The position numbers and the translations under genes were made by a program. Positions 10,781 to 55,512 of a stretch of 60,485 nucleotides of DNA are shown piece after piece. Below the pieces are notes generated by a model that was not told the DNA's origin, made no database searches, and was given only the letters and a program-made list of their open reading frames with translations. Source of the DNA: an uncultured Alistipes sp. (lineage in GTDB: Bacteria; Bacillota; Clostridia; Lachnospirales; Lachnospiraceae). The stretch lies in contig CAYOHM010000001.1 in NCBI GenBank assembly GCA_964403785.1, positions 1 through 60,485 on the forward strand. The letters run 5' to 3'. Positions within the stretch are counted from its first letter, which is position 1, and every line of letters begins with the position of its first letter.

Positions 10781-10786
10781 CCCTTT

Positions 10787-11560: not shown

Positions 11561-12435
11561 TACTTCACCCTCCTCTTTCTCTCGTTTCCGAGCACGAGAA
11601 TAATAAGGAACAGCACTGCTGTCACAAGCTTTAAATCCCTCGACTCAAGACCTGCACGAATTGCAAGCGCAACGCAGCCCTTGTAGATAAGAGAGCCTAC
11701 AACAACACTTGAAGTAACACTTAACCACGTAACATTCTTAAAAATACTCGTTCCGATAATTACGCTGGCAAGACCTATAACCACTGTACCGGTACCCATC
11801 GAAACATCAAAATATCTCTGCTGCTGTGCAAAAATACAGCCGCTAAGCGTTACAAGACCATTGGCAATGGCAAGTCCCATAATCCTTATCCTTCCCTTAT
11901 CAACACCAAGGGAAGTAACCAGTGTGTCATTATCACCTACGGCACGAAGCATAAAGCCTGCCTTGGTTTTAAGAAAAGCATCCAGAATAAGCTTTGTAAT
12001 GATTGTCAGTACCAAAGTAACAATTACAACTCTGTACTTTGACAGCCCACCCGACAGAATATTATTGACAAAATCATTGTCAAAAATATTCTGTTTCGTG
12101 TATATCGGAAAGTTTGCTTTGCCTGCAATATGAAGATTAACCGTATAAAGCGCTGTCATCATAATAATACCTGACAAAAGGTCCCTGACCTTAAGCTTTA
12201 CATGGATAAGTCCCGTGATAATTCCTACCAAAGCCCCCGATGCAAACGCAATCGGCAGCGTAAGGTACGGATTAACCCCTTTATCTATAAGGACAACTGC
12301 TATTGCAGCTCCCATAGGGAAGCTACCGTCCACCGTAAGATCCGCAAAATCAAGAATTTTATACGTTATGTATACACCCAGAGCCATAATTGCATAAATA
12401 AGGCCCTGTTCAAATACGCTTAGCAAAAGAGTCAT
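11560..12435 (-). CDS. ABC transporter permease
   Basis: 291-aa polytopic protein translationally coupled to the ATPase. It looks like the branched-chain/BMP-type permeases that accompany PF04392 binding proteins. Confidence 0.8.
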   Translation of the reverse strand: MTLLLSVFEQGLIYAIMALGVYITYKILDFADLTVDGSFPMGAAIAVVLIDKGVNPYLTLPIAFASGALVGIITGLIHVKLKVRDLLSGIIMMTALYTVNLHIAGKANFPIYTKQNIFDNDFVNNILSGGLSKYRVVIVTLVLTIITKLILDAFLKTKAGFMLRAVGDNDTLVTSLGVDKGRIRIMGLAIANGLVTLSGCIFAQQQRYFDVSMGTGTVVIGLASVIIGTSIFKNVTWLSVTSSVVVGSLIYKGCVALAIRAGLESRDLKLVTAVLFLIILVLGNERKRRVK

Positions 12436-12456
12436 TTTACACCTCTACACTGTTTA

Positions 12457-13476
12457 TTACTGTGCCGTAATCGTATCAAATTTCTGGTATGCGCTGTTTA
12501 CAAAATCAGAATCAAGCGTGAGAGAAATCTTCTCCGCTGCCGCCGTATTCACATAAAGACTCGGCTCTGAAATTACTTCAAAATTCATTTCTGAAGCCTT
12601 TGCCTCTCCCTTTAATACCTTTGCCGCCATCACACCTGTCTGTTTGCCAAGTTCGTAATACTCCAGACCCATTGATGCAACACAGCCTGCCTTAACCTGC
12701 TCTACTTCACTTCCGAACACAGGAATACCTGCTTCGTTAGCTGCTGCCAGGACTGTCTGAAGTGCAGAAACAACCGTATTATCCGTAAGATTGGTGATAC
12801 AGTCAACCTTGCCCACCATATCCTTAGCTGCAAGCTCTACTTCACTAATCTGGTTGATACCGGTTACCACAATCTCAAAGCCGTAATTTTCTGCATTTGC
12901 CTGATATTCAGCAATCGTAGAAACCGAATTTGTCTCACTTGTTGTGTATATAATGCCAATCTTCTTGGCATCAGGCATAATCTTTCTAATCATTTCAAGC
13001 TGTGCTGTTACCGCTAATGCATCGGATGTACCTGTAATGTTGCCAACCGGAACGCCATCCTCATTTGCAAGACCTGCTGCAACCGGGTCTGACACTGCGG
13101 TATAAATTACAGGGATATCCGTGTTAAGGCATGAATTGTAAGCTGACATTGCCGATGGTGTGGCAATACCGCAAATAAGATCAACCTTCTGTGAAACATA
13201 GCTGTCAGCGATTGTACTTGCCGTAGCAGTGTCCGCCTGTGCATTATCATAAAGCACCTTAAGATTGGTTCCTTCTATGATGCCCTCCTGTGCAAGCCCT
13301 GCAAGAAATCCTTCACGGCAGTTATCAAGAGAACCATGCTCTGCGAACTGTGAAATACCTATGGTATAAGTTACCTCGCCGTTGGATGCAGTACTGTCCG
13401 TACTGCCATTGCAGCCTGCAAGTACACTCATACCCATTGCAGCAGTCATAAAAGCTGCCAAAATTCTTTTTTTCAT
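12457..13476 (-). CDS. ABC transporter substrate-binding lipoprotein (ABC_sub_bind, PF04392-like)
   Basis: Signal peptide plus lipobox MKKRILAAFMTAAMGMSVLAGC. GGAGGA lies 6 nt upstream of the ATG at 13476, so the ORF-track start at 13527 is probably too long. The fold looks periplasmic-binding-like (YTIGISQF..., KIGIIYTTSE). Confidence 0.8.
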   Translation of the reverse strand: MKKRILAAFMTAAMGMSVLAGCNGSTDSTASNGEVTYTIGISQFAEHGSLDNCREGFLAGLAQEGIIEGTNLKVLYDNAQADTATASTIADSYVSQKVDLICGIATPSAMSAYNSCLNTDIPVIYTAVSDPVAAGLANEDGVPVGNITGTSDALAVTAQLEMIRKIMPDAKKIGIIYTTSETNSVSTIAEYQANAENYGFEIVVTGINQISEVELAAKDMVGKVDCITNLTDNTVVSALQTVLAAANEAGIPVFGSEVEQVKAGCVASMGLEYYELGKQTGVMAAKVLKGEAKASEMNFEVISEPSLYVNTAAAEKISLTLDSDFVNSAYQKFDTITAQ

Positions 13477-13577
13477 AATTTCCTCCATAAACTCCTTTAA
13501 AATTTTATCAGGATTTATTATAATCATACTTTGCAGATTATTTCAATCTGTTTTTACTGTGTCTACACATTTTGCAT

Positions 13578-14462
13578 TTATGCTAAATATTCGTCAAATC
13601 TGTCAGTTGTATCGTTCTGGAAAACAACTCCGATAACGCCCGGGCCGGTGTGTGCACCGATTGCGCAGCCTATTCTTCCCTCCAGAATATCCTTAACATT
13701 GTATTTATCCTTAAGCTGCTGCCTGATATTTTCGCAATCCTCCCTGCAGGTTCCGTAACAGCTTGCGATAACCTGCTTATCCAGATTCTTTCCCTTTTCA
13801 CCTACCATTTCAATAAGACGTTTTTGAGCACGTTTCCAGCCGCGGATTCTCTCAACCGCCTGTAAAGAACCATTCTCGTCCACAATGATAATCGGTTTTA
13901 TATCAAGAACCGTTCCGGCAAGGAAGGATGTACGGCTAAGTCTGCCGCCCTTAAATAAATATTCAAGCTCATATACTATGATAACATGCTCCATATGCTC
14001 GCAGAAATAGTTTGCTGCCTCGATAATAAGCTCCTTCGGAGCACCGTTTTTCTGCATTTTAAGAAGTCTTTCCACAACAAGACCATAGCCCAGTGAGGCG
14101 CACTTGGAATCAATTATCGTCATTTTGAAATCAGGATATTTTTCCCTTACCTCCTCATAGGCAAGGTTGGCTGCCTGAAAGGTACCCGCAATTCCGGTGG
14201 AGAAGCATATGTAAAGCACCTCATCTCCCCTTTCGGCATACTTGCTAAAATGCTGTTCAAACATATACTGGCTTATATGATATGTCTTGATATCCTTGTT
14301 CTCAGCCTGAATTTCATAAAATTCATCCGGAAAAATACTCTCACCGTCCAAATAATCCACACCATCAATTGTTACCGGTGTAGGCATCACATAAAGGTTA
14401 TATTCATCTATTACATTCTTTGGTACATCCGACGCCGAATCCGTGATTATAAAAAATGCCAT
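13578..14462 (-). CDS. DegV family fatty-acid-binding protein
   Basis: N-terminus FFIITDSASDVP, then ISQYMFEQHF and SKCASLGYG, at the typical length of about 290 aa. Confidence 0.9.
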   Translation of the reverse strand: MAFFIITDSASDVPKNVIDEYNLYVMPTPVTIDGVDYLDGESIFPDEFYEIQAENKDIKTYHISQYMFEQHFSKYAERGDEVLYICFSTGIAGTFQAANLAYEEVREKYPDFKMTIIDSKCASLGYGLVVERLLKMQKNGAPKELIIEAANYFCEHMEHVIIVYELEYLFKGGRLSRTSFLAGTVLDIKPIIIVDENGSLQAVERIRGWKRAQKRLIEMVGEKGKNLDKQVIASCYGTCREDCENIRQQLKDKYNVKDILEGRIGCAIGAHTGPGVIGVVFQNDTTDRFDEYLA

Positions 14463-38372: not shown

Positions 38373-38729
38373 TTATTTCTTCATTTTAGGGTCACAAAGC
38401 AAAGCTGCAATATACCCGAATAACAAAGCCGCAGATATACCTACTGCCCCTGCTTTAAGACCTCCCATAAAGGTTCCGAGAAGTCCGTTTTCATCAACAG
38501 CTTCCTTAACTCCCTTCCATAACACATTTCCAAAGCCGCAAAGCGGAACCGAAGCTCCGGCTCCGGCGAATTCAAGAAATGGCTCATATATGCCTAAAGC
38601 ACCAAGAACGGCACCCGTACATACCAGCAAAACCATAATTCTTCCCGGCATCAGCTTGGTTTTATCCATAAGGAGCTGAGCAAAAAAACAAATAATTCCG
38701 CCAATTAAAAAAGCCTTTAAATAATCCAT
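38373..38729 (-). CDS. spoVAE: Stage V sporulation protein AE (SpoVAEb-type)
   Basis: 118 aa. MDYLKAFLIGGIICFFAQLLMDKT..., PFLEFAGAGASVPLCGFGN. Confidence 0.9.
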   Translation of the reverse strand: MDYLKAFLIGGIICFFAQLLMDKTKLMPGRIMVLLVCTGAVLGALGIYEPFLEFAGAGASVPLCGFGNVLWKGVKEAVDENGLLGTFMGGLKAGAVGISAALLFGYIAALLCDPKMKK

Positions 38730-38735
38730 ATCACA

Positions 38736-39773
38736 CTATTCCCTCTCTAAAATAATTCCGTGTGCTATTCCAGGCACAGAATGTCCTTCATTGTAGCTCA
38801 CCGGTGAAACAAGAGCCCCTGTTGGTATAAACAAAACTCTTTTCCATACACGGGCTTTTATTTTTTCCAAAATATGGCTGCACAGAACAACCGCACTGCA
38901 CCCACAGCCGCTTCCACCCGAATGTGTATCCTGTTTTTCATTGTCATACACCATAAGTCCGCAATCCATATATCGCCCGCTTATGTCATATCCCTGCTGT
39001 TTTACAAGATTAATTATTATGTCACGCCCGACACTTCCCAAATCTCCTGTAATAATTTTGTCATAGTAATCCACGCAAGCACCCAAATCTTTTAAATTTG
39101 CACACACTAAATCCGCTGCTGCAGGTGCCATACAGGCACCCATATTCATACTGTCCTTTACACCGTAATCAACTATTTTACCCGTTGTTATTCCTGCAAT
39201 TCTTACATTTGGCGCATCACTTGCCGGTGAGGGCTCTTTTCCTATCATAACCGCACCGCACCCGGTAACCGTCCATGTAGCGGAAAGAGGTCTTTGATTG
39301 CCATATGCAAGCGGAAATCTAAACTGTTTCTCCGCACTGGCAAAGTGGCTTGATGCCACCGCGATTGTTCTGTCCGCATATCCGGCATTTACCGCCATGG
39401 ATGCCAGAGCCATAGTTTCTCCCATAGTAGAGCATGCCCCATAAACACCAAAAAACGGCACATTATACTTTATAAGTCCAAATGTACTTCCAATCAACTG
39501 TCCCAGCAAATCACCTGCAAAAATATATCTTATGTCCTCTGTGACAAGATTGGATTTTTTAAGGAGCTTATCCACCGTTTTGGTCTGAAGATTGCTTTCT
39601 GCCTCCTCCCACGTATTCATTCCAAACATCGGGTCCTCGCATACCTCATCAAACAAATCCTTAAGCGGACCCTCTCCCTCCTTTTTGCCCACAATACAAG
39701 CCGTGTTTTGTATATAGGGAGGGTTTTTAAACAATATACTTTGTTTTCCCTTTATTTCACTGTTTTTTTCCAT
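38736..39773 (-). CDS. spoVAD: Stage V sporulation protein AD (thiolase-fold DPA-binding subunit)
   Basis: KGKQSILFKNPPYIQNTACIVGKKEGEGPL..., GVYGACSTMGE..., GGSGCGCSA. GGAGG followed by T7 sits immediately upstream of the ATG at 39773. The ORF-track start at 39920 would overlap ilvE and cross a terminator. Confidence 0.9.
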   Translation of the reverse strand: MEKNSEIKGKQSILFKNPPYIQNTACIVGKKEGEGPLKDLFDEVCEDPMFGMNTWEEAESNLQTKTVDKLLKKSNLVTEDIRYIFAGDLLGQLIGSTFGLIKYNVPFFGVYGACSTMGETMALASMAVNAGYADRTIAVASSHFASAEKQFRFPLAYGNQRPLSATWTVTGCGAVMIGKEPSPASDAPNVRIAGITTGKIVDYGVKDSMNMGACMAPAAADLVCANLKDLGACVDYYDKIITGDLGSVGRDIIINLVKQQGYDISGRYMDCGLMVYDNEKQDTHSGGSGCGCSAVVLCSHILEKIKARVWKRVLFIPTGALVSPVSYNEGHSVPGIAHGIILERE

Positions 39774-39810
39774 AAAAAAACCTCCAAATATTTTTATTAG
39801 TATTTGGAGG
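39774..39810 (-). terminator. ilvE rho-independent terminator whose 3' arm is the spoVAD Shine-Dalgarno sequence
   Basis: Read on the minus strand: CCTCCAAATA-CTAATAAAAA-TATTTGGAGG, a perfect 10-bp stem, followed by TTTTTTT and then directly by the spoVAD ATG. Confidence 0.8.
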
Positions 39811-39849
39811 TTTATAATTTCTATTAGAAAATTTTTAATTTGGCAATAA

Positions 39850-40875
39850 TTACATAATCTTGTAAATCCAGCCCTTAGGAGCTTCAATACGTCCCATCTG
39901 GATACCTGTGAGAGTATCATAAAGCTTCTGGGTTACAGGACCCATCTGTGTCATACCTGTTGGAATACAGATTTCATTGCCGTGGTCAACAATCTTGCCA
40001 ACCGGCGAAATGACAGCCGCAGTACCGCAAAGACCACACTCAGCCATATCCTTTAATTCGTCCTTATGTATCCTTCTCTCCTCAACTTCAAGACCCAGAT
40101 AATCCTTGGCAACAGTAAGGAGTGAACGTCTTGTGATTGATGGAAGAATTGTGCTTGACTTAGGAGTAACTACCTTGCCATCCTTTGTCACAAAAATAAA
40201 GTTAGCTCCGCCTGTTTCCTCTACATAGGTTCTCGTTGCAGCATCAAGATACATATTCTCATCATAGCCCTGATTATGTGCATCAACTATGGCATGAAGG
40301 CTCATTGCATAGTTAAGTCCTGCTTTGATATGTCCGGTTCCGTTAGGAGCTGCACGGTCAAAATCACAAACACGTATGGTAAGCGGCTTTACACCACCCT
40401 TAAAGTAAGGTCCGACAGGAGTTGTGAATATTCTGAACTGATACTCTGTTGCAGGCTTTACACCGATAACTGCATTGCTTCCGAACATATATGGGCGGAT
40501 ATAAAGTGTTGCACCCGTTCCGTAAGGAGGAACATAAGCTGCATTAGCCTCCACCGTTTTGATAACTGCATCAACAAACTTATCCTGTGCAAATACAGGC
40601 ATCTCAAGTCTTTTGCAGGAATTCTCCATACGCTCTGCATTCAAATCAGGACGGAAGGTTACTATATGTCCATCCTCCGTAGTATATGCCTTCATACCCT
40701 CAAAACAGGTCTGTGCATACTGAAGTACGCCCGCGCACTCGCTAATCACCACATTGGAATCTGAAATGAGAGCGCCCTCATCCCAAGCTCCGTCCTTGTA
40801 ATTAGAAACAAATCTCTTATCTGTCTCAACATAGCCAAAACCAAGATTGCCCCAGTCAATATTTTTCTTTTCCAT
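39850..40875 (-). CDS. ilvE: Branched-chain amino acid aminotransferase
   Basis: MEKKNIDWGNLGFGYV..., FEGMKAY, YIRPYMFG and ETGGANFIF, about 341 aa. The ATG at 40875 is preferred over the ORF-track start at 40983. Confidence 0.9.
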   Translation of the reverse strand: MEKKNIDWGNLGFGYVETDKRFVSNYKDGAWDEGALISDSNVVISECAGVLQYAQTCFEGMKAYTTEDGHIVTFRPDLNAERMENSCKRLEMPVFAQDKFVDAVIKTVEANAAYVPPYGTGATLYIRPYMFGSNAVIGVKPATEYQFRIFTTPVGPYFKGGVKPLTIRVCDFDRAAPNGTGHIKAGLNYAMSLHAIVDAHNQGYDENMYLDAATRTYVEETGGANFIFVTKDGKVVTPKSSTILPSITRRSLLTVAKDYLGLEVEERRIHKDELKDMAECGLCGTAAVISPVGKIVDHGNEICIPTGMTQMGPVTQKLYDTLTGIQMGRIEAPKGWIYKIM

Positions 40876-41098
40876 GATTTGAACCCTTTCTGTATTATAA
40901 AATATACGAGTGCCAAAAACTTTTTGCCGCCCGTTTGTAAAACAATCTTTGTTAATCATAACTCTAACCTTATTTAACGTCAAGTAATTATAATTAAATT
41001 CAACATTATAATAATTTATAAAGAATCTGTGAACTTTATTGAAATAATTGAATTTTTATGCTAAATTGTGTGTAAATTATTTACAGGGGGTATTTATC

Positions 41099-41833
41099 AT
41101 GACTAACTATAACGAATACACAGATTATGATGATGATAATGACAGTAAAATGCTGCGTGGAAAGCTTCTTGCAGCTAATTTTGAGGAGAATGTAATCGCA
41201 CAGTCCTATGCTTTTATGTTCGTTGCGCTTCTTATCACGGCATTTACAGCATACTATGTAGCTTCATCACCCGTTATTTTTAACAAGCTTTATTATTCAC
41301 CGTTCACTCTTATTGTGTTATGCATTTCCGAGCTTGTTATCGTAATGGCAGCCAACTTTACACTGTCAAGGAATGCCGTTATTCCAAGTGCAGTACTTTT
41401 TACGGTATATTCCGTGATAAATGGTGCAACCTTGTCAAGTATTTTTATCATCTATGAAATAGGCAGTATATATACAGCCTTTATCGCTTGTTCATTGATG
41501 TTCGGTGCAATGTCGCTTTACGGATTAGCCACCAAAAAAGACCTTACTTCCATAGGAAGCCTTTGTTTTACGCTGCTTTTGGGATTAATTATTGCAGGTG
41601 TGGTTAATATTTTTCTTGGCAGCTCCGTTTTGGATACACTTCTGTCCGTTGTTGGAATCGTTATTTTCGTGGGTATCATTGCATATGACACACAGAAGAT
41701 TAAATCCATGATTTATTATACGGATTCGGAGAACATTACCTGCATCGCACTTATGGGAGCGCTTGAATTGTACCTTGATTTCATCAATCTTTTTCTCAGG
41801 CTGCTGCGACTTTTTGCCAGACGCAGGGATTAA
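41099..41833 (+). CDS. Bax inhibitor-1/YccA family membrane protein
   Basis: 7 TM helices. The C-terminal motif reads YDTQKIK...ALMGALELYLDFINLFLRLLRLF. The ATG at 41099 is preceded by CAGGGGG. Confidence 0.88.
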   Translation: MTNYNEYTDYDDDNDSKMLRGKLLAANFEENVIAQSYAFMFVALLITAFTAYYVASSPVIFNKLYYSPFTLIVLCISELVIVMAANFTLSRNAVIPSAVLFTVYSVINGATLSSIFIIYEIGSIYTAFIACSLMFGAMSLYGLATKKDLTSIGSLCFTLLLGLIIAGVVNIFLGSSVLDTLLSVVGIVIFVGIIAYDTQKIKSMIYYTDSENITCIALMGALELYLDFINLFLRLLRLFARRRD

Positions 41834-41848
41834 AAGCGTTTTATTAAA

Positions 41849-41892
41849 TAAAAAGTGTCCCTTTATCGAAGCGATAAAAGGACACTTTTTTT
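41849..41892. terminator. Bidirectional terminator between the convergent BI-1 gene and the spoVAA-AC unit
   Basis: 14-bp stem with one mismatch, GTGTCCCTTTATCG (41855-41868) pairing with CGATAAAAGGACAC (41872-41885). AAAAA lies on the left and TTTTTTT on the right. Confidence 0.85.
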
Positions 41893-42079
41893 ATAATGGA
41901 AATGTGCCTATCTTTTCAACAAGCTGTTCCATTTCATCCTTAGATTTTACATTTCTTGCCTCATTGATAACATCCCTTCTTTGTTCCTCCGTCATCCCTG
42001 CGAAGGCGTTCATAGCGCAAATATTCTCAATCATAGATAGAGAAAATGCTATCGGCATCTGGTCACTTTCCTGTTCCAT
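41891..42079 (-). CDS. Small acidic hypothetical protein (62 aa), last gene of the spoVAA-AB-AC unit
   Basis: The ORF starts 12 nt after the spoVAC stop. It is predicted helical (MTEEQRRDVINEARNVKSKDEMEQLVEKIG). I do not recognise the family. Confidence 0.45.
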   Translation of the reverse strand: MEQESDQMPIAFSLSMIENICAMNAFAGMTEEQRRDVINEARNVKSKDEMEQLVEKIGTFPL

Positions 42080-42091
42080 TGTTAAATCCCC

Positions 42092-42562
42092 CTACCAAAA
42101 ATTTAAGAGCGTTCCTGCCCAATATATAATTCCTAAGCCCCAGCTCGTCACAAGGCCGTATAGAATAACCGGACCGGCAATTTGAAATATCCTGCATCCG
42201 ACACCGAATACCCAGCCCTCTTTCTTAAATTCCATTGCCGGTGCACAAACACCGTTTGCAAAGCCCGTAATCGGCACCAGTGCTCCGGCGCCACCCCACT
42301 TCACTATGCTTGGAAAGATATTAAGGCACGTTAATATCACACTTAGCAAGACCAGAATAACCGTCTCCCACAGTCCCGCCGTCTTGTTATCAAGTCCCAT
42401 ATTCATAAATATGTTCATTATGAACTGGCCCAAAGTACAGATGATACCACCCGTTATAAATGCGTTGACCGCATTCTTCAAAAAATTGTGCGTCGGAGTT
42501 ATCTTTTCAACATATTCATTATATATTTTGTTTCTTTCCTCCTGCTGCAAATTCTCCTGCAT
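42092..42562 (-). CDS. spoVAC: Stage V sporulation protein AC
   Basis: YVEKITPTHNFLKNAVNAFITGGIICTLGQ..., GAGALVPITGFANG. 156 aa. Confidence 0.9.
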   Translation of the reverse strand: MQENLQQEERNKIYNEYVEKITPTHNFLKNAVNAFITGGIICTLGQFIMNIFMNMGLDNKTAGLWETVILVLLSVILTCLNIFPSIVKWGGAGALVPITGFANGVCAPAMEFKKEGWVFGVGCRIFQIAGPVILYGLVTSWGLGIIYWAGTLLNFW

Positions 42563-42600
42563 ACAATTACCCTCCTCGTATTTTTTAGTTTCTCAATTCC

Positions 42601-43011
42601 TTATTTCAAAAAGAAATATACAAGCCCTCCTATACCTTTTCCAATTGCCATCATAAGAATTATAAAGCCGAGCCCCTCCTTTAATTTCGTTCTCATGATA
42701 AATACGGGTATGGTCTTTATAACCTCAGCCAGTGCCACAGCCAGACAGCCTGAATAAATGCCGCCGACTATACCATAAATTATATAAAACGGCAATTTAA
42801 ACGGTATGTGTATACTGTATACCCACAGCACATTTCCGAGTGTTGCGCCCCAGATAACACATTCTTCATATAATCTTATTTTGCTTGCGGAATGTGTGCG
42901 CTGTGCCATTCGGTTTATTATTCCGAGAGTTGTGATAAGGGCATACACCCCGCCGGATACAAGAAGTCCCGCCGAAAATCCCATTAAACCCCTTATAATA
43001 TCAAACATCAC
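42601..43011 (-). CDS. spoVAB: Stage V sporulation protein AB
   Basis: 136-aa membrane protein directly after spoVAA with an 11-nt overlap. Its size, topology and position match SpoVAB. Confidence 0.75.
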   Translation of the reverse strand: MMFDIIRGLMGFSAGLLVSGGVYALITTLGIINRMAQRTHSASKIRLYEECVIWGATLGNVLWVYSIHIPFKLPFYIIYGIVGGIYSGCLAVALAEVIKTIPVFIMRTKLKEGLGFIILMMAIGKGIGGLVYFFLK

Positions 43012-43618
43012 TCTCCTCCTTTAAACGCGAGGCTCTGTCAACAATGGCACTATTTATATCAGTTTCATAGCTTCGCATTTGAACTTCAACCGGAGTTGGT
43101 ACATTATCCAGACGTTTACCGGCAAAATGGTTGTAGAAAATACAAATACCTCCGGTCAGACCTATGCTGTAACACAGTTCAATTACCCCCGTACTTTGGT
43201 TATCTCCCGTAAGCTCGTATAATTTTTCAAAAAGTTCATTTATATTAATATCATTGTTGTATGCCATAATAGTAAACATACTTCCCATAAATACAACAAT
43301 GCATATGGCAATCACCTTGACAACATCAATAAAATTCTTCTTAGGCTTTTTTCTTTTATAGTCAACTATAAAATCGCTTTCGCCCTCGTTACTTACGTCA
43401 ACCTCCGGACATTTTTTCTGAATCAGCTCTATCACTCTAAGCACGGAGAAAACAAAGGTCTTTTCCTTCACGTCCGGAACATTGAGGATAATGATATCTG
43501 AAACCATTTGTTTTATATTTTCATCCTTGCAAAATACAGAACCAACATCCTTAATGCGCACATCCCTTTTATAAACGGCTATGTTCTGGTCAAATTTAAC
43601 ATATACGGTTTCAGGCAT
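43001..43618 (-). CDS. spoVAA: Stage V sporulation protein AA
   Basis: VYVKFDQNIAVYKRDVRIKDVGSVFC..., 205 aa, with a central TM helix. It occupies the operon position upstream of spoVAB and spoVAC. Confidence 0.8.
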   Translation of the reverse strand: MPETVYVKFDQNIAVYKRDVRIKDVGSVFCKDENIKQMVSDIIILNVPDVKEKTFVFSVLRVIELIQKKCPEVDVSNEGESDFIVDYKRKKPKKNFIDVVKVIAICIVVFMGSMFTIMAYNNDININELFEKLYELTGDNQSTGVIELCYSIGLTGGICIFYNHFAGKRLDNVPTPVEVQMRSYETDINSAIVDRASRLKEESDV

Positions 43619-46792: not shown

Positions 46793-46996
46793 TATCCTGC
46801 TTTTATCCCAGTTAACTTACTTTATTTACGTTCAGCAACTGAACGCCGAATTTTATTATACAGCAAATACCGTTTTATTTCCACATAAGTTTTTATCACT
46901 TAATAAAGTTAGTTTCTTTTTGCATAAATTGAATTGATTTGCCGTTTTTGATAAAATTAGATTAATTAATTTAGGTCAATTTCGGAGGCTGAGCAT

Positions 46997-49900
46997 ATGG
47001 AACAAGATTCGATTATTTCCACCAAAGCAAATACCTTATATGCACTTTCCAAGATACTTACACGTTCCAAAATCGAGGAAATGTTCATCCTTTATATCGG
47101 TGACTACGAAAAGGACAAGCTTTTGGTATGTCATCAGATAATGGACAAATTCCGCGGCACACGAATCGTTGTAAGAAGCTCTTATTCCAACGAGGATTCC
47201 ATGCAGCGTTCAAATGCAGGAAGATACAAGAGTATTCTTGACGTTGATTCGTCCAATGACGAGCAGATTATGAACTCGATTGAGGAGGTAATCCGTTCCT
47301 ACCGTAAGGACAGCTCCGAAAGCAATGAAAGCTTTGAATATGAGCAGGTGCTTATACAGCGCCAGTCAGAGGACGTTGTTATAAGCGGCGTGCTTTTTTC
47401 AAGGGACATACATGGAAACCGCCCATATTACCTGATAAACTATGATGATAACGGTTCTACCGATTCCGTAACAAGCGGTCAGGGCGGTTCTTCACTATGG
47501 ATTGCAAGGGACTGTGTTCCTTCCAGCCTTCCAAGTCCGTGGCAGGAGCTTATTCTGTCCGTTCAGGAGGCTGAATCAATTCTTGACGGGCTTACCATTG
47601 ATGTGGAATTTGCCATAAACAGCCGAAACGAAATTACGCTTTTCCAGATAAGACCTCTGGTTGCGTCAATCCGTCAGGAGCGCAATATGGAGGATGCTGC
47701 CTACTTTTCTCTTAAGAAGAAGCTTAAAGAGCAGTATTTAACCTATGAAAACAAGCTTGACCACTGTCCTATGATGTTCTCCGATATGGCCTTCTGGAAT
47801 CCTTCGGAAATAATCGGTGCCAATCCTCATCCGCTTGATTATTCACTCTATCTCAAGATTCTTACCAGTCATGCGTGGAATGAAGGAATCAGGGTTCTGG
47901 GTTACCGCACCGTAAATGAGGACCTTATGTATCAGCTTGGCAACAAGCCATATATAAGTCTGGATTACTCATTTTATTCACTGATTCCGTCAGACCTGCC
48001 CGAATACCTCGTGCATAAATTAGTGGCTCTCTACAAAAAAAGACTGACTGACAACCCTACGTCACATGATAAAATCGAGTTTGAAATAATATATAATACA
48101 TATGATTTCTGTACGGATAAAAATACCCTTTCGCTTCTTAACGAAGGCTGGAGTAATGATGAACGCAATATATTAATCAACTCTCTGCGCAAATTAACCA
48201 TCCATACGATATCAAACCAACGCGAATATATCAGGGATGACCTTGACAGCCTGCATAAGCTCGAGCTTATGCGCTTAAGAAGCGAGGAGGCATTTCAAAA
48301 GGAAATTTCTGCAGGTGAGCTTGTAAATGAGATTTCCAGACTAATTGACGGAATATGCTACTACGGCACACCACAGTTTGCAAGACAGGCAAGAATTGCT
48401 TTTATGTCAAGGGCATTCTGCCGTTCACTTGTAGAGAGCAGCCATTTTACGGAGGATGAAATGGACTCCTTTATGAGTGGTGTAACCACCGTGTCCTCAG
48501 AGTTTGAGCATGACTTTAAAAGCTTCACCAACGGACAGCTTTCCAAGAAGGAATTTGACAAAAAATACGGACATTTAAGAAGCGGTACCTATGATATACT
48601 GAGCGACTGCTACGCCGATATGAATTTCAGGTCAATGGCCGGCAAACATCCGGCTTGTGCAGATGAACACCATATTTCAAGTACACTCAATTACGAGAGG
48701 CTTCAGGCTGCGCTTACCGATTCCTGTCTGCCCTTTGACGCCATATATTTTTGCCAGTTTCTTAAAATGGCAATTGAGCAGCGTGAATTTTTTAAATTTG
48801 AATTTACCCGTTCATTAAGTCTTGTTCTTGAAATGATAAAAAAACTCGGCACGCTTATAGACATAAAACGTCAGGATTTATGCTGGCTCACCATAGATGA
48901 TATTTTAAAGCTGCGCGGCAAGGTAAATGAGCTGTCAGCAGATAATGATTTGGAGAAATTAATTGCAAAGCGAAAGGAGCTTCACAAACAGCAGACTTCA
49001 CTTATACTTCCGGATGTCATCACCGGACCCATAAGTCTTGATATGATATTTGTCTATGAAGCACGCCCTAATTTCATCACTTCCAAGGTGATTGAAGGCG
49101 AAGTGGTAAACCTTGAGGAGGAGCCTCTTGCAGATATTTCCGGCAAAATAGTTGCCGTAACCAAGGCAGACCCCGGGTTTGAGTGGATATTCGCCAAGGG
49201 TATAAAGGGCTTCATCACCAAATACGGCGGTGCAGCCTCCCACATGGCAATCAGATGCGCAGAATTTGAAATTCCTGCTGCAATCGGCTGCGGTGAAAAA
49301 ATATACTCACAGGTTTCGAAGATGTCCTACATTGAGCTCGACTGCAACAATGGTAAAATCTCCGAAGGTATCCAGTACTCCGACCTGCACGCTCTTATTA
49401 CACAGCGCGAGGGAACAAACCAGTACGGTGATTTTACGGATGTACTTGAATCTGCATACATAAGATTTTATGAGCTTATGGGCTTTATTCCAAAACCTGT
49501 TTCAAACCATACAAAAAACTTTGAAAAGCTCTTTGATGAACCGATTGACCTGCTTATAGTTGTCGGCGGCGGTGCCTTAAATCCGTCCCTTTATGACAGG
49601 CCTCACAATGAAGAGCTTCAGCCGCACAGAGATGTAACCGAGGAAAAGCTCATTCGCTACTGCATTGCCCATAAGATACCGATAATTGCTACCTGCCGCG
49701 GTATGCAGTATGTAAATGTACTTCTGGGCGGAAGGCTTCACTACCACCCACAGCTTAAGACTCCACACCCGCGAGGAGTTGACCATCCCGTGTACTTAAT
49801 AAACGAGAAGCGCACAATTATGGTCAATAACTACCACAATGACTGTATTTACACTGAGGACCTTGCACCTTGTCTTACGCCTTTTGCAGTTGATACGGAC

Positions 49901-50044
49901 AATAATGTTGTGGAAGCGTATGTTTCTGAGGAAATGAAAATCCTTGGGCTCCAATGGCATCCCGAAAGACCGTTTGAAACCTCTCTTGCATATGAAGAAA
50001 CACGAAAAATCATTATGAACTTTATGAATACCCACATAAAGTAA
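46997..50044 (+). CDS. Multidomain fusion: PPDK_N-type ATP-grasp, ~460 aa unassigned, PEP-utilising swivel phosphohistidine domain, C26/class-I glutamine-amidotransferase-like domain
   Basis: aa 1-225: STKANTLYAL..., VVRSSYSNEDS...NAGRYKS and LFQIRPL, which look PPDK/PpsA nucleotide-binding-like. aa ~690-790: ADPGFEWIF...KYGGAASHMAIRCAEFEIPAAIGCG, the swivel domain with His749. aa ~795-1015: PIIATCRGMQYVNVLLGG (Cys900) and LGLQWHPE (His988, Glu990). GGAGG lies 8 nt upstream of the ATG. Confidence 0.8.
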   Translation: MEQDSIISTKANTLYALSKILTRSKIEEMFILYIGDYEKDKLLVCHQIMDKFRGTRIVVRSSYSNEDSMQRSNAGRYKSILDVDSSNDEQIMNSIEEVIRSYRKDSSESNESFEYEQVLIQRQSEDVVISGVLFSRDIHGNRPYYLINYDDNGSTDSVTSGQGGSSLWIARDCVPSSLPSPWQELILSVQEAESILDGLTIDVEFAINSRNEITLFQIRPLVASIRQERNMEDAAYFSLKKKLKEQYLTYENKLDHCPMMFSDMAFWNPSEIIGANPHPLDYSLYLKILTSHAWNEGIRVLGYRTVNEDLMYQLGNKPYISLDYSFYSLIPSDLPEYLVHKLVALYKKRLTDNPTSHDKIEFEIIYNTYDFCTDKNTLSLLNEGWSNDERNILINSLRKLTIHTISNQREYIRDDLDSLHKLELMRLRSEEAFQKEISAGELVNEISRLIDGICYYGTPQFARQARIAFMSRAFCRSLVESSHFTEDEMDSFMSGVTTVSSEFEHDFKSFTNGQLSKKEFDKKYGHLRSGTYDILSDCYADMNFRSMAGKHPACADEHHISSTLNYERLQAALTDSCLPFDAIYFCQFLKMAIEQREFFKFEFTRSLSLVLEMIKKLGTLIDIKRQDLCWLTIDDILKLRGKVNELSADNDLEKLIAKRKELHKQQTSLILPDVITGPISLDMIFVYEARPNFITSKVIEGEVVNLEEEPLADISGKIVAVTKADPGFEWIFAKGIKGFITKYGGAASHMAIRCAEFEIPAAIGCGEKIYSQVSKMSYIELDCNNGKISEGIQYSDLHALITQREGTNQYGDFTDVLESAYIRFYELMGFIPKPVSNHTKNFEKLFDEPIDLLIVVGGGALNPSLYDRPHNEELQPHRDVTEEKLIRYCIAHKIPIIATCRGMQYVNVLLGGRLHYHPQLKTPHPRGVDHPVYLINEKRTIMVNNYHNDCIYTEDLAPCLTPFAVDTDNNVVEAYVSEEMKILGLQWHPERPFETSLAYEETRKIIMNFMNTHIK

Positions 50045-50134: not shown

Positions 50135-51682
50135 ATGACATCATCATCTATCGGAATCCTGGTCATCATTGCTTTATATCTTATAATGATGGTTGCCATC
50201 GGTATTTTATTTTCAAAGACAAACAACGATACCGGTGATTATTATCTGGGCGGCAGGAAGCTCGGTCCCTTTGTAACAGCTATGAGTGCTGAAGCTTCTG
50301 ACATGAGCAGCTGGCTTCTTATGGGTCTTCCCGGCGTTGCATACCTCACCGGCCTGTCGGATGCAGTGTGGACCGCTGTCGGACTTGCAATCGGTACATA
50401 TTGTAACTGGCTCATTGTAGCAAAACGTTTAAGGAAATATTCAGTTAAGGCAAATAACGCCATTACCATTCCTGAATTTTTTTCAAACAGATATCACGAT
50501 AAGAGCAAATCACTTCTTGCGATTTCTGCCATATTCATCGTAATATTCTTCATACCATATACAGCTTCGGGCTTTGCTGCATGCGGCAAGCTTTTCTCCA
50601 CACTTTTCGGCATTTCCTATATGAAAGCAATGCTTATAAGTGCAATAGTTATCGTGGCTTATACGGCTCTTGGAGGGTTTCTGGCTGCCAGTACAACCGA
50701 CCTTATTCAGAGTATAGTTATGTCACTTGCTCTTTTGATTGTTGTTGTATTTGGTATCTCAGAGGCAGGCGGTGTCAGTGCAGTTATCGATAACGGCAAA
50801 TCACTTGCAGGCTACTTATCGCTTACAAGTATACACAATGTAACTACGAACAGCTCATCACCTTACGGCTTTATTACGATAATCTCCACCCTTGCCTGGG
50901 GACTTGGTTACTTCGGAATGCCCCATATCCTGCTTCGTTTTATGGCTATTAAGGACGAGAAAAAGCTGACACTTTCAAGAAGGATTGCTACAATCTGGGT
51001 AATAATTTCAATGGGAGTTGCTATTTTCATCGGTGTTATCGGCAACCAGTTAAGCAGTATAGGTATTATCGACAAATTTACAACCTCCTCAGATTCAGAA
51101 AAGATTCTCATAAAGCTCGCAGAGCTTTTGAGTAAGTCAGGTATTTTGGGAATCATATTTGCAGGTATAATTCTTGCAGGAATTCTTGCATGTACGATGT
51201 CGACGGCTGATTCACAGCTTCTTGCCGCATCTTCAAGTATTTCCCAGAACCTCCTCAGAGATGTTTTCGGATTTAAGCTCTCAGATAAGGCAAGCATACG
51301 GGCAGCAAGAGTTACTGTTATCGCCATTGCAGTCATCTCCGTATTCCTTGCATCAAACCCTGACAGCTCAGTATTTTCAATTGTTTCGTTTGCATGGGCA
51401 GGATTTGGTGCAGTGTTTGGTCCGATTATGCTGTTTTCATTGTTCTGGAAACGCACGAATAAAAATGGTGCACTTGCCGGAATGATTTCAGGCGGTGTAA
51501 TGGTTTTTGTCTGGAAATACTGCATAAGACCTCTTGGCGGTGCATGGGATATTTATGAATTGCTTCCGGCATTTATTGTATCATGTATATTCATCATTGC
51601 TGTAAGTCTTCTTACAAAGGCTCCTTGTGAAGCTATCATTAAGGAATTTGAGGAAGTAGACGCTGAATGTAAATTAAACTAA
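50135..51682 (+). CDS. putP: Sodium/proline symporter (SSS family)
   Basis: DYYLGGRKLGPFVTAMSAEASDMSSWLLMGLPG... The protein has about 13 TM helices and is 515 aa. Confidence 0.88.
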   Translation: MTSSSIGILVIIALYLIMMVAIGILFSKTNNDTGDYYLGGRKLGPFVTAMSAEASDMSSWLLMGLPGVAYLTGLSDAVWTAVGLAIGTYCNWLIVAKRLRKYSVKANNAITIPEFFSNRYHDKSKSLLAISAIFIVIFFIPYTASGFAACGKLFSTLFGISYMKAMLISAIVIVAYTALGGFLAASTTDLIQSIVMSLALLIVVVFGISEAGGVSAVIDNGKSLAGYLSLTSIHNVTTNSSSPYGFITIISTLAWGLGYFGMPHILLRFMAIKDEKKLTLSRRIATIWVIISMGVAIFIGVIGNQLSSIGIIDKFTTSSDSEKILIKLAELLSKSGILGIIFAGIILAGILACTMSTADSQLLAASSSISQNLLRDVFGFKLSDKASIRAARVTVIAIAVISVFLASNPDSSVFSIVSFAWAGFGAVFGPIMLFSLFWKRTNKNGALAGMISGGVMVFVWKYCIRPLGGAWDIYELLPAFIVSCIFIIAVSLLTKAPCEAIIKEFEEVDAECKLN

Positions 51683-51687
51683 ATTAA

Positions 51688-51724
51688 GAAACGCCCGACT
51701 GTGTCGGGCGTCTTTTTATTTTAT
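51688..51724 (+). terminator. Rho-independent terminator after putP
   Basis: ACGCCCGAC-TGT-GTCGGGCGT (51691-51711) followed by CTTTTTATTTT. Confidence 0.9.
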
Positions 51725-51985: not shown

Positions 51986-53359
51986 TTAATAGTTCATTAT
52001 CTCATCGTTTGTTCCTATGATGATTTTGCAGTCCTTGTGTATATTATTAAGAACCTTTATCATCATATCCTCCGAAATGGCAATGCATCCGGCAGTATAA
52101 TCACCCGATGCCACGTGGAGAAATATCGCTGAGCCCTTCATAGGAACACAATCCGAATTATAATCCAAAGCAAGCACATAGTTATACATTGGAGCATTGT
52201 CTATTATATGCTCCGCTGAATTCCATGCAAGCCCTGTTTCATTAGTTGTAACAAACTTATTATAATACTCGGAATCTGAATCATCAACCCAGTAGTAACT
52301 GTCATCAACCTTGGTATATGTATATCTGGTACCCGGATTTGACTTAATTCCAAATGCTGTTGTAAAACTGTATATTCCCTTCGGAGTTATCATTTCTCCC
52401 TCACTTGCCGTACCGATTCCGTATTTTGCGACAAGTGCCTGTGTTGAAAACAATTCCCTCCATACTCCGTCTGCATCCTTTACATGCATTGATAATTCAC
52501 CCGTAGTCTCGCCCTCTGCTGCCTCTACTATTATGAGCTGTCCCGCATCGGACGCCACATTTAACTTACTCACATAATCATATGGCAGCTCACCGGTTAA
52601 ATTCTCGTCAAAAGGAGGTACAAAGTCATCATCTCCACCATAGCTGTCATTATCAGTAAAATCCCACCATTCACCTTTATATCCGGTAAAACCGTATTCC
52701 TTCATCACATCCTCAAGAAGCTGTGCATTCGCCGCCGCTTCATCATCACAGTCACTGTAATCCCTGTCTGCGAGTGTCGAAAAAGAGTCAAATTCCGTTG
52801 GCATATGCACCTCATCACCATTTAAGTCCACCAACGTGATATCCATTGTAAGTCCTGTATTATGCCCTGCCACTCCCTTTGCCGGATTGGCAACATAAAC
52901 TGCATTGGGGTATACCTCCCAAAGTCTTACCTGTGCCTCATAAGGTCTGTAAGCATCCCATATCTTCAGTCCATAACCCATTGAATTTAATTTTTCCTGA
53001 ACCTTCACAAGCTTCTTTACAGTTCCGCACCGCAGATACGCCTCACTGAAGTCATATATTCTTTCACCGGTAAAATTATTGGCCGTTGCGTATCTTAAAT
53101 CCACCACAAGGTTCGGAATATAATCCTTAAGGCGCACGAAATCCCCGTCATCAATATCCTCAAGCGGAATGATTTCAGTCTGAACTATCTGGGCAGTGCT
53201 CTCCGTATTTACGGCAGTTGCACTTTCCGATGCCTGTATTGAGTCTTCTGTGGCTTCTGTTATAGATATTGTCGGAAGTTCCTCTGTGTTTTCTGAGCAG
53301 CCGCACAAAAACATCGTCATTAAAACCCCTGATATAAATGTTTTATATAATTTATTCAT
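51986..53359 (-). CDS. Exported lipoprotein fusing a VanX/DdpX-type M15 D-Ala-D-Ala dipeptidase-like domain to a YkuD-type L,D-transpeptidase domain
   Basis: Signal peptide and lipobox-like MTMFLCGCS. M15D motifs DLRYATANNFTG, WDAYRPY and GHNTGLTMD (H166, D173), plus GEWWDF where VanX has EWWH. Ldt motif SAIFLHVASGDYTAGCIAI (H415, C425). Confidence 0.8.
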   Translation of the reverse strand: MNKLYKTFISGVLMTMFLCGCSENTEELPTISITEATEDSIQASESATAVNTESTAQIVQTEIIPLEDIDDGDFVRLKDYIPNLVVDLRYATANNFTGERIYDFSEAYLRCGTVKKLVKVQEKLNSMGYGLKIWDAYRPYEAQVRLWEVYPNAVYVANPAKGVAGHNTGLTMDITLVDLNGDEVHMPTEFDSFSTLADRDYSDCDDEAAANAQLLEDVMKEYGFTGYKGEWWDFTDNDSYGGDDDFVPPFDENLTGELPYDYVSKLNVASDAGQLIIVEAAEGETTGELSMHVKDADGVWRELFSTQALVAKYGIGTASEGEMITPKGIYSFTTAFGIKSNPGTRYTYTKVDDSYYWVDDSDSEYYNKFVTTNETGLAWNSAEHIIDNAPMYNYVLALDYNSDCVPMKGSAIFLHVASGDYTAGCIAISEDMMIKVLNNIHKDCKIIIGTNDEIMNY

Positions 53360-53628: not shown

Positions 53629-53763
53629 TTACCACCCCGCCTTAGTTTCGCAATCACTTAATAAATATAGTTATAGTTATCTTGAAAAAAAATACTTTTT
53701 ACTGTATAATTATCTCATATATTTTTATAAGAATCAATTTTATTCATGAAAGGATTTATACAT

Positions 53764-54684
53764 ATGCGACTAATTACACGTTCAGATTTTGATGGTCTTG
53801 CATGCGGTGCTCTTCTTAAAGAAGCCGGAATCATTGATTCTTGGAAGTTTGCGCATCCTAAAGACCTTCAGGATGGTTTGGTTGAAATTGATGAAAATGA
53901 CTGTCTTGCCAATGTACCGTTTGTTGAGGGCTGCGGACTTTGGTTCGACCATCATTCAAGTGAGTTTGAAAGAAATCAGCTGGAGGGAAAATACAAAGGT
54001 GAAAGCCGTGTTACTCCTTCCTGTGCCAGAATCATATATGAGTACTATGGCGGAAAGGAACGTTTCCCACAGTTCGACGAAATGATGATTGCCGTTGATA
54101 AGGTTGATTCAGGGCATCTTACGATTGATGAGGTTATGAATCCGCAGGGATGGATTTTGATAGGTTTCCTTATGGACCCGAGAACAGGTCTTGGCCGTTG
54201 GAGACAGTTCACTATTTCCAATTATCAGTTAATGGAATTGCTTATGGATGCATGCCGTACAATGTCAACTCAGGAGATTCTTAACTTACCGGATGTCAAG
54301 GAAAGAATCGAGGTTTACAACGAGCAGACAGAAAAGTTCAAGGAAATGGTTACAAAGTACACACGTACCGAGGGTAACGTAATTATTTCCGACCTTCGTG
54401 GCGTTGACCCTATCTACACCGGTAATCGTTTTATGATTTACAGTATGTATCCTGAACAGAATATATCTGCATGGATTGTAAGCGGACGCGGCGGCAAGGG
54501 CTGTTCTGCGGCTGTCGGTTACAGTATTCTTAACAGAACATGCGATGTCAATGTCGGAAGTCTTATGCTCAAGTACAACGGAGGCGGTCACAAGGCAGTT
54601 GGCACATGCCAGTTCACTGACGAGAATATGGAAACAGACCTTCCAAAGATGCTTGCTGAGCTTTGCGAGTTGTCTAATAAATAA
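53764..54684 (+). CDS. DHH/DHHA1-family phosphoesterase (NrnA/exopolyphosphatase-related)
   Basis: Motif I SDFDGLACG, motif III WFDHHSS and DHHA1 GGGH (YNGGGHKAVG). AAAGGA lies upstream of the ATG at 53764. Confidence 0.7.
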   Translation: MRLITRSDFDGLACGALLKEAGIIDSWKFAHPKDLQDGLVEIDENDCLANVPFVEGCGLWFDHHSSEFERNQLEGKYKGESRVTPSCARIIYEYYGGKERFPQFDEMMIAVDKVDSGHLTIDEVMNPQGWILIGFLMDPRTGLGRWRQFTISNYQLMELLMDACRTMSTQEILNLPDVKERIEVYNEQTEKFKEMVTKYTRTEGNVIISDLRGVDPIYTGNRFMIYSMYPEQNISAWIVSGRGGKGCSAAVGYSILNRTCDVNVGSLMLKYNGGGHKAVGTCQFTDENMETDLPKMLAELCELSNK

Positions 54685-54726
54685 TTGTGAAGCAGACAAT
54701 CCTTATTTTTAGGGAGGATATTTGTG

Positions 54727-55512
54727 ATGGAATTTCGTCCATGCATAGATATACATAACGGCAAGGTCAAGCAGATTGTTGGCGGTTCACTGACGGACAG
54801 CGGGGCTGCAACCAATTTTGAGTCAGATTATGACGGTGCATATTATGCCCGTCTTTATGCAAAGCGCAAGCTCACCGGCGGTCACGTTATACTGCTCAAT
54901 CCCGCGTCATCCGAATACTATGAAGCGGATAAGCAGCAGGCATTGTCCGCCCTTAGTGCCACGCCCGGGCTTCTTCAGATTGGCGGCGGTATAAATGACT
55001 CAAATGCCAAAGAATTTATTGATGCCGGTGCATCCCATGTAATCGTCACCTCGTATGTATTTAAGGATGGCAAAATTAATTACGATAACATCAATAAGCT
55101 GGTATCCGCAGTCGGCAGGCAGCATATTGTATTTGACCTGAGCTGCCGTAGGAAGAATCAAAAATACTACATCGTTACCGACCGCTGGCAGAAATTTACT
55201 GATGTGGCAATAGACGATGCAGTTCTTGATGAATTTTCTTCATATTGTGATGAATTTCTTATTCATGCAGCGGATGTGGAGGGTAAATGTAACGGTATCG
55301 AGGAGGAATTGGTAAGAATTCTTGATTTGTGGCTTGCCTCCTCTGATAAGGATTTTGCCGTAACCTATGCGGGTGGTGTCGGAAGCTATGATGATATACG
55401 AACATTAAAACAGCTTTCACACAACAAAATCAACATTACCATTGGAAGTGCACTTAATCTTTTTGGCGGAGAGCTTGATTTTGACCGTATTCTTGATATT
55501 ATAAATGAATAA
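54727..55512 (+). CDS. hisA: ProFAR isomerase of the eukaryote-like His6 type (HisA)
   Basis: FRPCIDIHNGKVKQIVGGSL..., LQIGGGIND, VIVTSYVF and EFLIHAADVEGKCNGIEEEL parallel yeast His6 as I recall it. Confidence 0.85.
   Translation: MEFRPCIDIHNGKVKQIVGGSLTDSGAATNFESDYDGAYYARLYAKRKLTGGHVILLNPASSEYYEADKQQALSALSATPGLLQIGGGINDSNAKEFIDAGASHVIVTSYVFKDGKINYDNINKLVSAVGRQHIVFDLSCRRKNQKYYIVTDRWQKFTDVAIDDAVLDEFSSYCDEFLIHAADVEGKCNGIEEELVRILDLWLASSDKDFAVTYAGGVGSYDDIRTLKQLSHNKINITIGSALNLFGGELDFDRILDIINE

Follow-up and report, generated by a model that had tools for sequence, protein, structure and literature searches.

P–N bonds are rare in biology, and the only case in which the glutamine-kinase route to them has, to our knowledge, been characterised is the Campylobacter capsule. 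Four C. jejuni enzymes are described in the literature as jointly making the donor for O-methyl phosphoramidate (MeOPN) decoration of the capsule: Cj1418, the first enzyme, is an L-glutamine kinase (EC 2.7.3.13), Cj1416 a CTP:phosphoglutamine cytidylyltransferase, Cj1417 a gamma-glutamyl-CDP-amidate hydrolase and Cj1415 a cytidine diphosphoramidate kinase. They act in the order Cj1418, Cj1416, Cj1417, Cj1415, i.e. phosphoglutamine is converted to CDP-L-glutamine, from which the hydrolase then frees cytidine diphosphoramidate. The subject of this study is a gene for a 1015-aa protein in contig CAYOHM010000001.1, of which the whole stretch of 60,485 nt was analysed (the window, to which the coordinates of the fusion gene refer). 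We propose that this protein is probably a bifunctional enzyme, in which a kinase half would make a P–N bond and a gamma-glutamyl amidohydrolase half would then process it.

As judged from family models and gene context, the two halves are fused counterparts of characterised enzymes of the phosphoramidate pathway. The new element is the fused lineage itself, which is common in gut Clostridia and stripped of the usual genomic context.

Kinase half of the fusion protein

NCBIfam model NF004508 (PRK05849) spans aa 4–789 of the protein without a break, with a score of 740.5 bits against a curated cutoff of 501 (profile positions 8–786 of 789). Since this coverage comes in one stretch, the helical region of aa 226–690 is the central domain of the NF004508 family, and the statement of the original prediction, made from the letters of the sequence, that this region could not be assigned to any family no longer holds. 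The family is still labelled 'hypothetical protein' in NCBIfam, and we take Cj1418 to be one of its members. No structure of the NF004508 family was found in the PDB, and nothing relevant on PRK05849 or on phosphoramidate in Lachnospiraceae was found in the literature searched.

The other parts named in the original prediction, i.e. a PPDK_N-type ATP-grasp domain, a PEP-utilizers swivel domain and a C26/GATase domain, were all matched by Pfam (PPDK_N, aa 55–148, 38.5 bits against a cutoff of 27). Its residue numbers were also exact: His749 in the swivel motif GGAASH749 and the hydrolase triad of Cys900, His988 and Glu990 (motifs ATC900RGMQ and QWH988PE990) are invariant in 41 homologues. In the ATP-grasp domain, R60, S61, S62, E66, D67, Q121, E204, Q217 and R219 are conserved family-wide, as are the motifs W267-N268-P269-x-E271, Y524-x-H526-L527-R528 and R596-E597-x-x-K600-F601 in the central domain, which is the presumed site of glutamine binding and phosphoryl acceptance.

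An AlphaFold2 model of the window protein (mean pLDDT 79) was used for fold searches with Foldseek, and the best match among solved structures was rifampin phosphotransferase (RPH; 5HV1 and 5FBS, E 1.7e-17, ~890 aligned columns). Positions 510–788 of the family profile align to RPH residues 570–865, and the swivel domain lies at residues 366–458 in PEP synthase 2OLS. Thus, the swivel histidine is C-terminal as in RPH, unlike the central one of PEP synthase, and both the profile alignment and the fold search bear out the earlier reading of an RPH-like order of ATP-grasp domain, substrate region and swivel histidine. Membership in the RPH family was nevertheless rejected, with a score of 23.1 bits for NF041857 against a cutoff of 999; architecture and fold alone are in common. 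Compared with the enzyme RPH-Lm, the window protein has the same domain order, but only 13–14% identity, a different substrate domain and an additional hydrolase which RPH does not have. Membership in the PEP synthase/PPDK family was rejected as well. The PEP/pyruvate TIM barrel (PF02896) has no Pfam match in the 1015-aa protein, as had been predicted, the models of these families score 27–48 bits against cutoffs of 598–976, and the swivel domain stands after the substrate domain. Cj1418 likewise combines PPDK_N and PEP-utilizers without a TIM barrel, and its earlier annotation was PEP synthase or PPDK.

The likeness of the window protein to Cj1418 further consists in the end-to-end match to NF004508, in relatives named glutamine kinase and in a family that is encoded beside a C26 hydrolase. 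One such relative, P0323 (JGI name 'glutamine kinase'), aligns end to end with the window kinase at 32% identity over 791 aa (E 3e-127), and its locus has the order kinase, C26, NTP-transferase. Moreover, 104 kinase positions are at least 90% conserved in the canonical and in the window clade alike, and only two positions conserved in canonical kinases are changed. This unchanged constraint argues that the window-clade kinase would keep the canonical phosphorylation chemistry, probably on the same substrate.

Hydrolase half and predicted reaction

For the C-terminal domain, the best NCBIfam match is the gamma-glutamyl-CDP-amidate hydrolase model NF045546 (70.8 bits, profile positions 5–182 of 198), and a Cys-His-Glu triad on a class-I GATase fold is a further likeness to Cj1417. 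Foldseek matched the domain to SpuA, Lin1909 and PuuD with target-normalised TM-scores of 0.66–0.71. These members of peptidase family C26 have the same fold and triad, but unlike the window domain they stand alone and act in polyamine catabolism, and in sequence they score below the Cj1417 model; a PuuD-type gamma-glutamyl-GABA hydrolase was rejected, as NF008471 reached 38.8 bits against a cutoff of 266. The domain matches the stand-alone hydrolase of locus L008, which is encoded directly downstream of an unfused kinase, with 158 bits (E 5.6e-48). By these sequence comparisons, the C-terminal domain is orthologous to the stand-alone hydrolases encoded directly downstream of unfused kinases.

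Besides the triad, the window C26 domain has 21 more positions in common with the operon-encoded hydrolases. In the window clade, other residues stand in place of the canonical H925, S945 and H977, and we considered whether these replacements are a sign of a changed substrate. However, the nearest canonical relatives (L008, L013, L016 and L035), all of which have an adjacent NTP-transferase gene, carry N945/S977 as in the window clade and have no His at position 925, so that the changes are not diagnostic. Clade-specific residues are limited to V855, H870 (in an insertion), C889 and R926.

In the first step of the predicted reaction, ATP would be bound by the ATP-grasp domain, and His749 would take phosphoryl groups and swing to the central domain, where glutamine would be phosphorylated on its amide nitrogen, by homology to the family. 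The products would be N5-phospho-L-glutamine, AMP and Pi, with the chemistry described for Cj1418. In the second step, Cys900 would attack the gamma-carbonyl of a phosphorylated glutamine derivative and free the N–P fragment, leaving a gamma-glutamyl thioester, which the His988/Glu990 pair would hydrolyse to L-glutamate.

The original prediction had called the protein a small-molecule dikinase tied either to a gamma-glutamyl hydrolase or to an ammonia generator. The first part agrees with the intact triad and with the RPH order, and the second is not supported. The reading as an amidotransferase with an ammonia channel was rejected for want of a synthase domain, and the best matches are gamma-glutamyl hydrolases. 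Its other suggestion, that a gamma-glutamyl metabolite is phosphorylated and cleaved, comes close to the best-supported chemistry, in which the compound would probably be L-glutamine itself. The combination, held to be uncharacterised, has halves that correspond to the separately characterised Cj1418 and Cj1417.

Gene context of the kinase family

An exhaustive search with aa 1–795 gave 3591 clusters at 50% identity, 1412 of them below E 1e-30, and three architectures occur in the family: stand-alone kinases of ~780 aa, N-terminally extended kinases and rare C-terminal GATase fusions. The extensions are nucleotidyltransferases with one of two folds that are not related to each other, the TagD/RfaE-II HIGH-motif type (L013, L016, L034, L035, L040 and L047–L060) and the GlmU/LicC type (L069, L070, L076, L081, L082, L087 and L091). 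Many of the N-terminally extended kinases still have a separate downstream gene of the Cj1416-type NTP-transferase, and such a system would have two nucleotidyltransferases.

Gene context was surveyed within a radius of 10 kb at the 80 GTDB loci (at least 80) listed from a scan of genome contigs with the family alignment. A separate C26 gene and a separate NTP-transferase gene accompany the kinase in 41 of the 80 listed loci, 21 of which have an APS-kinase-like gene too. The usual order, in bacteria and archaea, is kinase, C26, NTP-transferase, with the APS-kinase-like gene coming next in some loci, and this set represents the same four activities as cj1418–cj1415. Kinase and C26 hydrolase, fused in the window, are adjacent genes in 49/80 listed loci. 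Directly after the stand-alone relative P0127 (43% identical), for instance, come genes for a C26 protein of 201 aa, which gave the 158-bit match to the window domain, and for an NTP-transferase of 254 aa, and at a marine locus an APS-kinase-like gene is added to the set.

Further variants of the cluster were seen. A conserved extended Firmicutes cluster (L095–L102, and L010 at 8136–13847) has the order kinase, APS-kinase-like gene, ~190-aa gene, Formyl_trans_N gene, C26 gene, a gene of no assigned family and NTP-transferase gene, and sits in glycan loci with LicD, sulfatase-family and glycosyltransferase genes. At L093, on Vibrio alfacsensis plasmid pVa1 (NZ_CP032095.1, 90218–95899), an N-terminally extended kinase gene and a C26 gene lie in an exopolysaccharide cluster with a CDP-glycerol glycerophosphotransferase-family gene and PEP-CTERM/XrtA genes; here the PGAP names 'PEP-utilizing enzyme' and 'gamma-glutamyl-gamma-aminobutyrate hydrolase family protein' mask the pathway. 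Gut metagenomes abound in close homologues of the Cj1416-type transferase. A single such sequence, P0456, occurs in 367 indexed blocks of the collection, and canonical phosphoramidate-type clusters therefore appear widespread there.

Origin of the fusion

A database search gave more than 120 protein clusters (989–1040 aa, 54–100% identity) that have all four domains of the fusion, most of them from metagenome-assembled genomes of Clostridia such as Lachnospiraceae and Butyrivibrio. In a neighbour-joining tree of 88 kinase domains, all Lachnospiraceae fusions form a single subclade, implying that the two genes were joined once. The sister of this subclade is a Coprococcus lineage with both genes adjacent and unfused, and the next group out has the kinase alone. 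Among isolates, Hominiventricola aquisgranensis CLA-AA-H78B (L029) has the fused form and Coprococcus ammoniilyticus H1_22 (L042) the unfused pair. This whole group is nested within loci of gut anaerobes which encode a HIGH-cytidylyltransferase-kinase, a C26 hydrolase and an NTP-transferase. The fusion would thus stem from the merger of two neighbouring genes in the order kinase, then hydrolase.

The original prediction had also raised the possibility that a frameshift or misassembly merged two separate genes, and the Coprococcus arrangement shows that such separate genes do exist side by side. The recurrence of the same four domains in so many clusters excludes an assembly artefact: the clusters are independent, come from many samples, all carry the same junction at similar length, and group as a single clade in the kinase tree. 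This explanation is effectively refuted and retains almost no probability.

In the kinase-alone subclade (L036, L038, L041, L043, L045, L046 and L051), neither C26 nor NTP-transferase nor APS-kinase-like genes lie within 10 kb of the kinase. The kinase gene is in conserved synteny with genes resembling pyrH, cdsA, dxr and rseP, as read from their sequences, and an SSF symporter gene lies 1–2 kb upstream.

A second, independent kinase-C26 fusion was found in Paenibacillus hexagrammi (WP_235119547, P0190; 1022 aa). It has the same two-enzyme architecture and family models as the window protein, with a kinase ~35% identical and of separate origin. Unlike the window gene, it is part of a full glycan cluster with glycosyltransferase and PEP-mutase genes, flanked by an APS-kinase-like gene on one side and an NTP-transferase gene on the other. 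A fused enzyme is thus compatible with the canonical pathway. Among the further genes of the P. hexagrammi locus L010 (CP090978, 5955835–5978903) are those for PEP mutase, a TPP-dependent decarboxylase, an aminotransferase and another NTP-transferase; given these phosphonate-pathway genes, one glycan locus may install both P–C and P–N groups.

Genomic context of the fused lineage

Several observations weigh against placing the window protein in this pathway. The link to Cj1418 was drawn from the family model, database names and gene context. No Campylobacter locus was among the matches listed in the family-alignment genome scan; a search seeded with the L090 kinase, whose partner hydrolase is the most Cj1417-like, returned proteins named 'glutamine kinase' and no Campylobacter protein. 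The C26 domain falls far short of the NF045546 equivalog cutoff of 250 bits. The cutoff is likewise not reached by the operon-encoded hydrolases outside Campylobacter, though 43/43 operon-encoded hydrolases match the model, at ~60–182 bits. The kinase-alone relatives have no hydrolase gene nearby. Finally, the 60-kb window, translated in all six frames, gave no cytidylyltransferase (NTP-transferase or HIGH-motif type) and no APS-kinase-like gene even at E<=10, and neither was found within 6–10 kb at any of 40 window-clade loci; the Pfam lists of L001–L007 and L011 agree.

The window protein thus differs from Cj1418 in that it bears the hydrolase as its C-terminal domain and is encoded neither in a glycan cluster nor near homologues of Cj1416 or Cj1415, and from Cj1417 in that there is no nearby cytidylyltransferase for CDP-L-glutamine and in its clade-specific residues. 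Around the fusion gene, the window holds housekeeping genes (aroC, tgt, yajC, putP, spoVA genes and a GNAT gene). Clustering of neighbours within 6 kb at the 40 clade loci gave no conserved partner gene, only subclade synteny and an SSF gene in 8 loci.

Two routes could reconcile the bifunctional enzyme with this context. In the first, the fusion performs steps 1 and 3 of the canonical pathway, a Cj1416-type transferase is encoded elsewhere in the genome, possibly together with a Cj1415-type kinase and a further transferase, and the product decorates a cell-envelope glycan. The P. hexagrammi fusion, whose NTP-transferase gene starts 5 nt downstream, shows the architecture in exactly the canonical setting, and the 24 conserved positions which the window C26 domain has in common with canonical hydrolases, as well as the N945/S977 variant in transferase-linked relatives, also speak for this route. 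Because the window clade is monophyletic, the absence of partner genes from 40 loci counts as one evolutionary event and not as 40. Moreover, a gene of the LCP family or of Polysacc_synt type adjoins the fusion in some loci. However, no clade member has a partner gene within 10 kb, nor does the 60-kb window, and the neighbours are housekeeping genes in place of glycan clusters. An orphan cytidylyltransferase was not found either: three clusters sampled from the 120 closest Cj1416-type matches, two of them on many contigs, all belong to complete clusters inside glycan loci, with their own kinase, hydrolase and APS-kinase-like genes. We regard this route as possible, at clearly less than even chance.

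In the second route no transferase takes part, and the hydrolase cleaves N5-phosphoglutamine directly, or phosphoglutamine is itself the functional product. The enzyme would then be a phosphoramidate synthase with the net reaction Gln + ATP + 2 H2O -> Glu + phosphoramidate + AMP + Pi. The partner genes are lost from the locus throughout the clade and yet both catalytic centres are invariant at 51–100% identity, and in the fused protein the hydrolase is anchored immediately behind the swivel domain. Two of the clade-only residues, H870 and R926, lie near the conserved core and could, speculatively, bind a bare phosphoramidate group. Complete canonical clusters occur separately in gut Lachnospiraceae, so that the fusion belongs to a distinct lineage. 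On the other hand, hydrolysis in the C. jejuni pathway reportedly has to be preceded by the transferase step, the hydrolase is dispensable or encoded elsewhere, as seen from the kinase-alone subclade, and free phosphoramidate is without an established physiological use; indeed, we know of neither phosphoramidate nor phosphoglutamine as a physiological metabolite. This route is a tentative one, no better placed than its canonical counterpart. We would likewise put forward only with reserve that the kinase-hydrolase lineage of gut Clostridia works without a cytidylyltransferase, making free phosphoramidate or using N5-phosphoglutamine.

Further neighbours were seen in some relatives. A HAD-family hydrolase gene starts 6 nt after the fusion gene in L001 (13051–13674), a LytR-CpsA-Psr gene lies 9 nt upstream of it in L011 (8427–9992), and a Polysacc_synt/MurJ-like gene is near it in L001 and L005. 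A link to the cell envelope or to a phosphatase is a possible hint from these genes.

Symporter gene and other features of the window

The features of the fusion gene and of the gene that follows it are collected in Table 1. The open reading frame is single and uninterrupted and has a good Shine–Dalgarno sequence, as first described. The gap of 90 nt to the downstream symporter gene, likewise described before, contains no terminator-like site, and the symporter exceeds the PutP equivalog cutoff; the putP-type gene is probably co-transcribed with the fusion gene, as read from the sequence.

Table 1. Positions of the fusion gene, its predicted domains and signals, and the downstream symporter gene in the window
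Feature	Position	Strand	Basis or remark
Promoter-like site, TTGAAT-17 nt-TAAAAT with TG extension (putative)	46929..46957	+	Upstream of the fusion gene; consensus scan, pattern match only
Shine–Dalgarno GGAGG	46984..46988	+	8 nt 5' of the fusion-gene ATG; read from sequence
Kinase-hydrolase fusion open reading frame	46997..50044	+	Complete, 1015 aa, uninterrupted, stop codon included; >120 full-length homologous clusters
ATP-grasp nucleotide-binding domain, PPDK_N type, aa 1–225	46997..47671	+	Pfam PPDK_N aa 55–148; NF004508 coverage; beta-rich in AlphaFold2 model
Central domain, mainly helical, aa 226–690	47672..49066	+	NF004508 coverage; helical in AlphaFold2 model; position of the RPH rifampin-binding domain
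Phosphohistidine swivel domain, aa 695–790	49079..49366	+	Pfam PEP-utilizers aa 716–786; His749 codon 49241–49243
C26/class-I GATase-fold gamma-glutamyl amidohydrolase domain, aa 797–1015	49385..50041	+	Pfam Peptidase_C26 aa 815–990, GATase aa 882–990
Catalytic triad codons	Cys900 49694–49696, His988 49958–49960, Glu990 49964–49966	+	Motifs ATC900RGMQ, QWH988PE990
PutP-type Na+/solute symporter	50135..51682	+	TIGR02121 532.9 bits against equivalog cutoff 515.5
Terminator-like hairpin, strong, ends the transcription unit	51691..51711	+	9 pairs, 7 of them G-C, then T run

The symporter bears on a further explanation, which takes up the general scheme of the original prediction with PutP as importer, namely that the kinase acts on another amide or amine, possibly an imported one, and that the C26 domain cleaves its gamma-glutamyl conjugate. 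The probable co-transcription is seen in the window and in a relative at 81% identity, an SSF gene is near the kinase in 8/40 loci, and the C26 domain scores well under the NF045546 equivalog cutoff. However, the family-conserved residues of the kinase, those of the central domain included, are nearly unchanged from canonical clusters, and the PutP-type gene scores as a proline transporter. In addition, the linkage is missing in most of the clade: the 8 loci show two different arrangements, and relatives at 55–58% identity have no symporter gene nearby. A linkage of PutP to the function of the fusion is thus doubtful, the earlier suggestion that the substrate is imported by it has little support, and a substrate other than that of the canonical kinases is improbable.

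Downstream of this transcription unit, a gene on the minus strand (51986–53359) encodes a 456-aa protein with a VanX-type D-Ala-D-Ala dipeptidase domain at aa 72–238 only; the remaining ~220 C-terminal residues match nothing. It is followed on the plus strand by a gene (53746–54684) for a 312-aa protein with a DHH-like 'FDHHSS' motif and no Pfam or NCBIfam match, and by a HisA-like gene (54724–55512) which matches the eukaryote-type hisA model TIGR02129 with 318 bits and is unusual for a Clostridia genome. The region 38373–43618 contains spoVAA and spoVAB, matched by Pfam, and apparent spoVAC, spoVAD and spoVAE, read from the sequences, so that the source organism should form spores. The rest of the window, as read from the translations, holds housekeeping, transport and envelope genes and no glycan-decoration cluster.

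Significance

With 1412 clusters at 50% identity and E <1e-30, the kinase family is a large one. In bacteria and archaea its genes commonly lie together with genes for a hydrolase and a cytidylyltransferase, a setting that is missing around the derived version in which abundant gut Lachnospiraceae have the two enzymes fused. Current database names, i.e. 'gamma-glutamyl-gamma-aminobutyrate hydrolase family protein' and 'PEP-utilizing enzyme', are misleading for the window protein. Should the fusion supply a pathway encoded elsewhere, phosphoramidate decoration of the envelope may occur in gut commensals as it does in Campylobacter. If it works alone, it would be a dedicated source of a small P–N phosphodonor in gut commensals, apart from capsule decoration.

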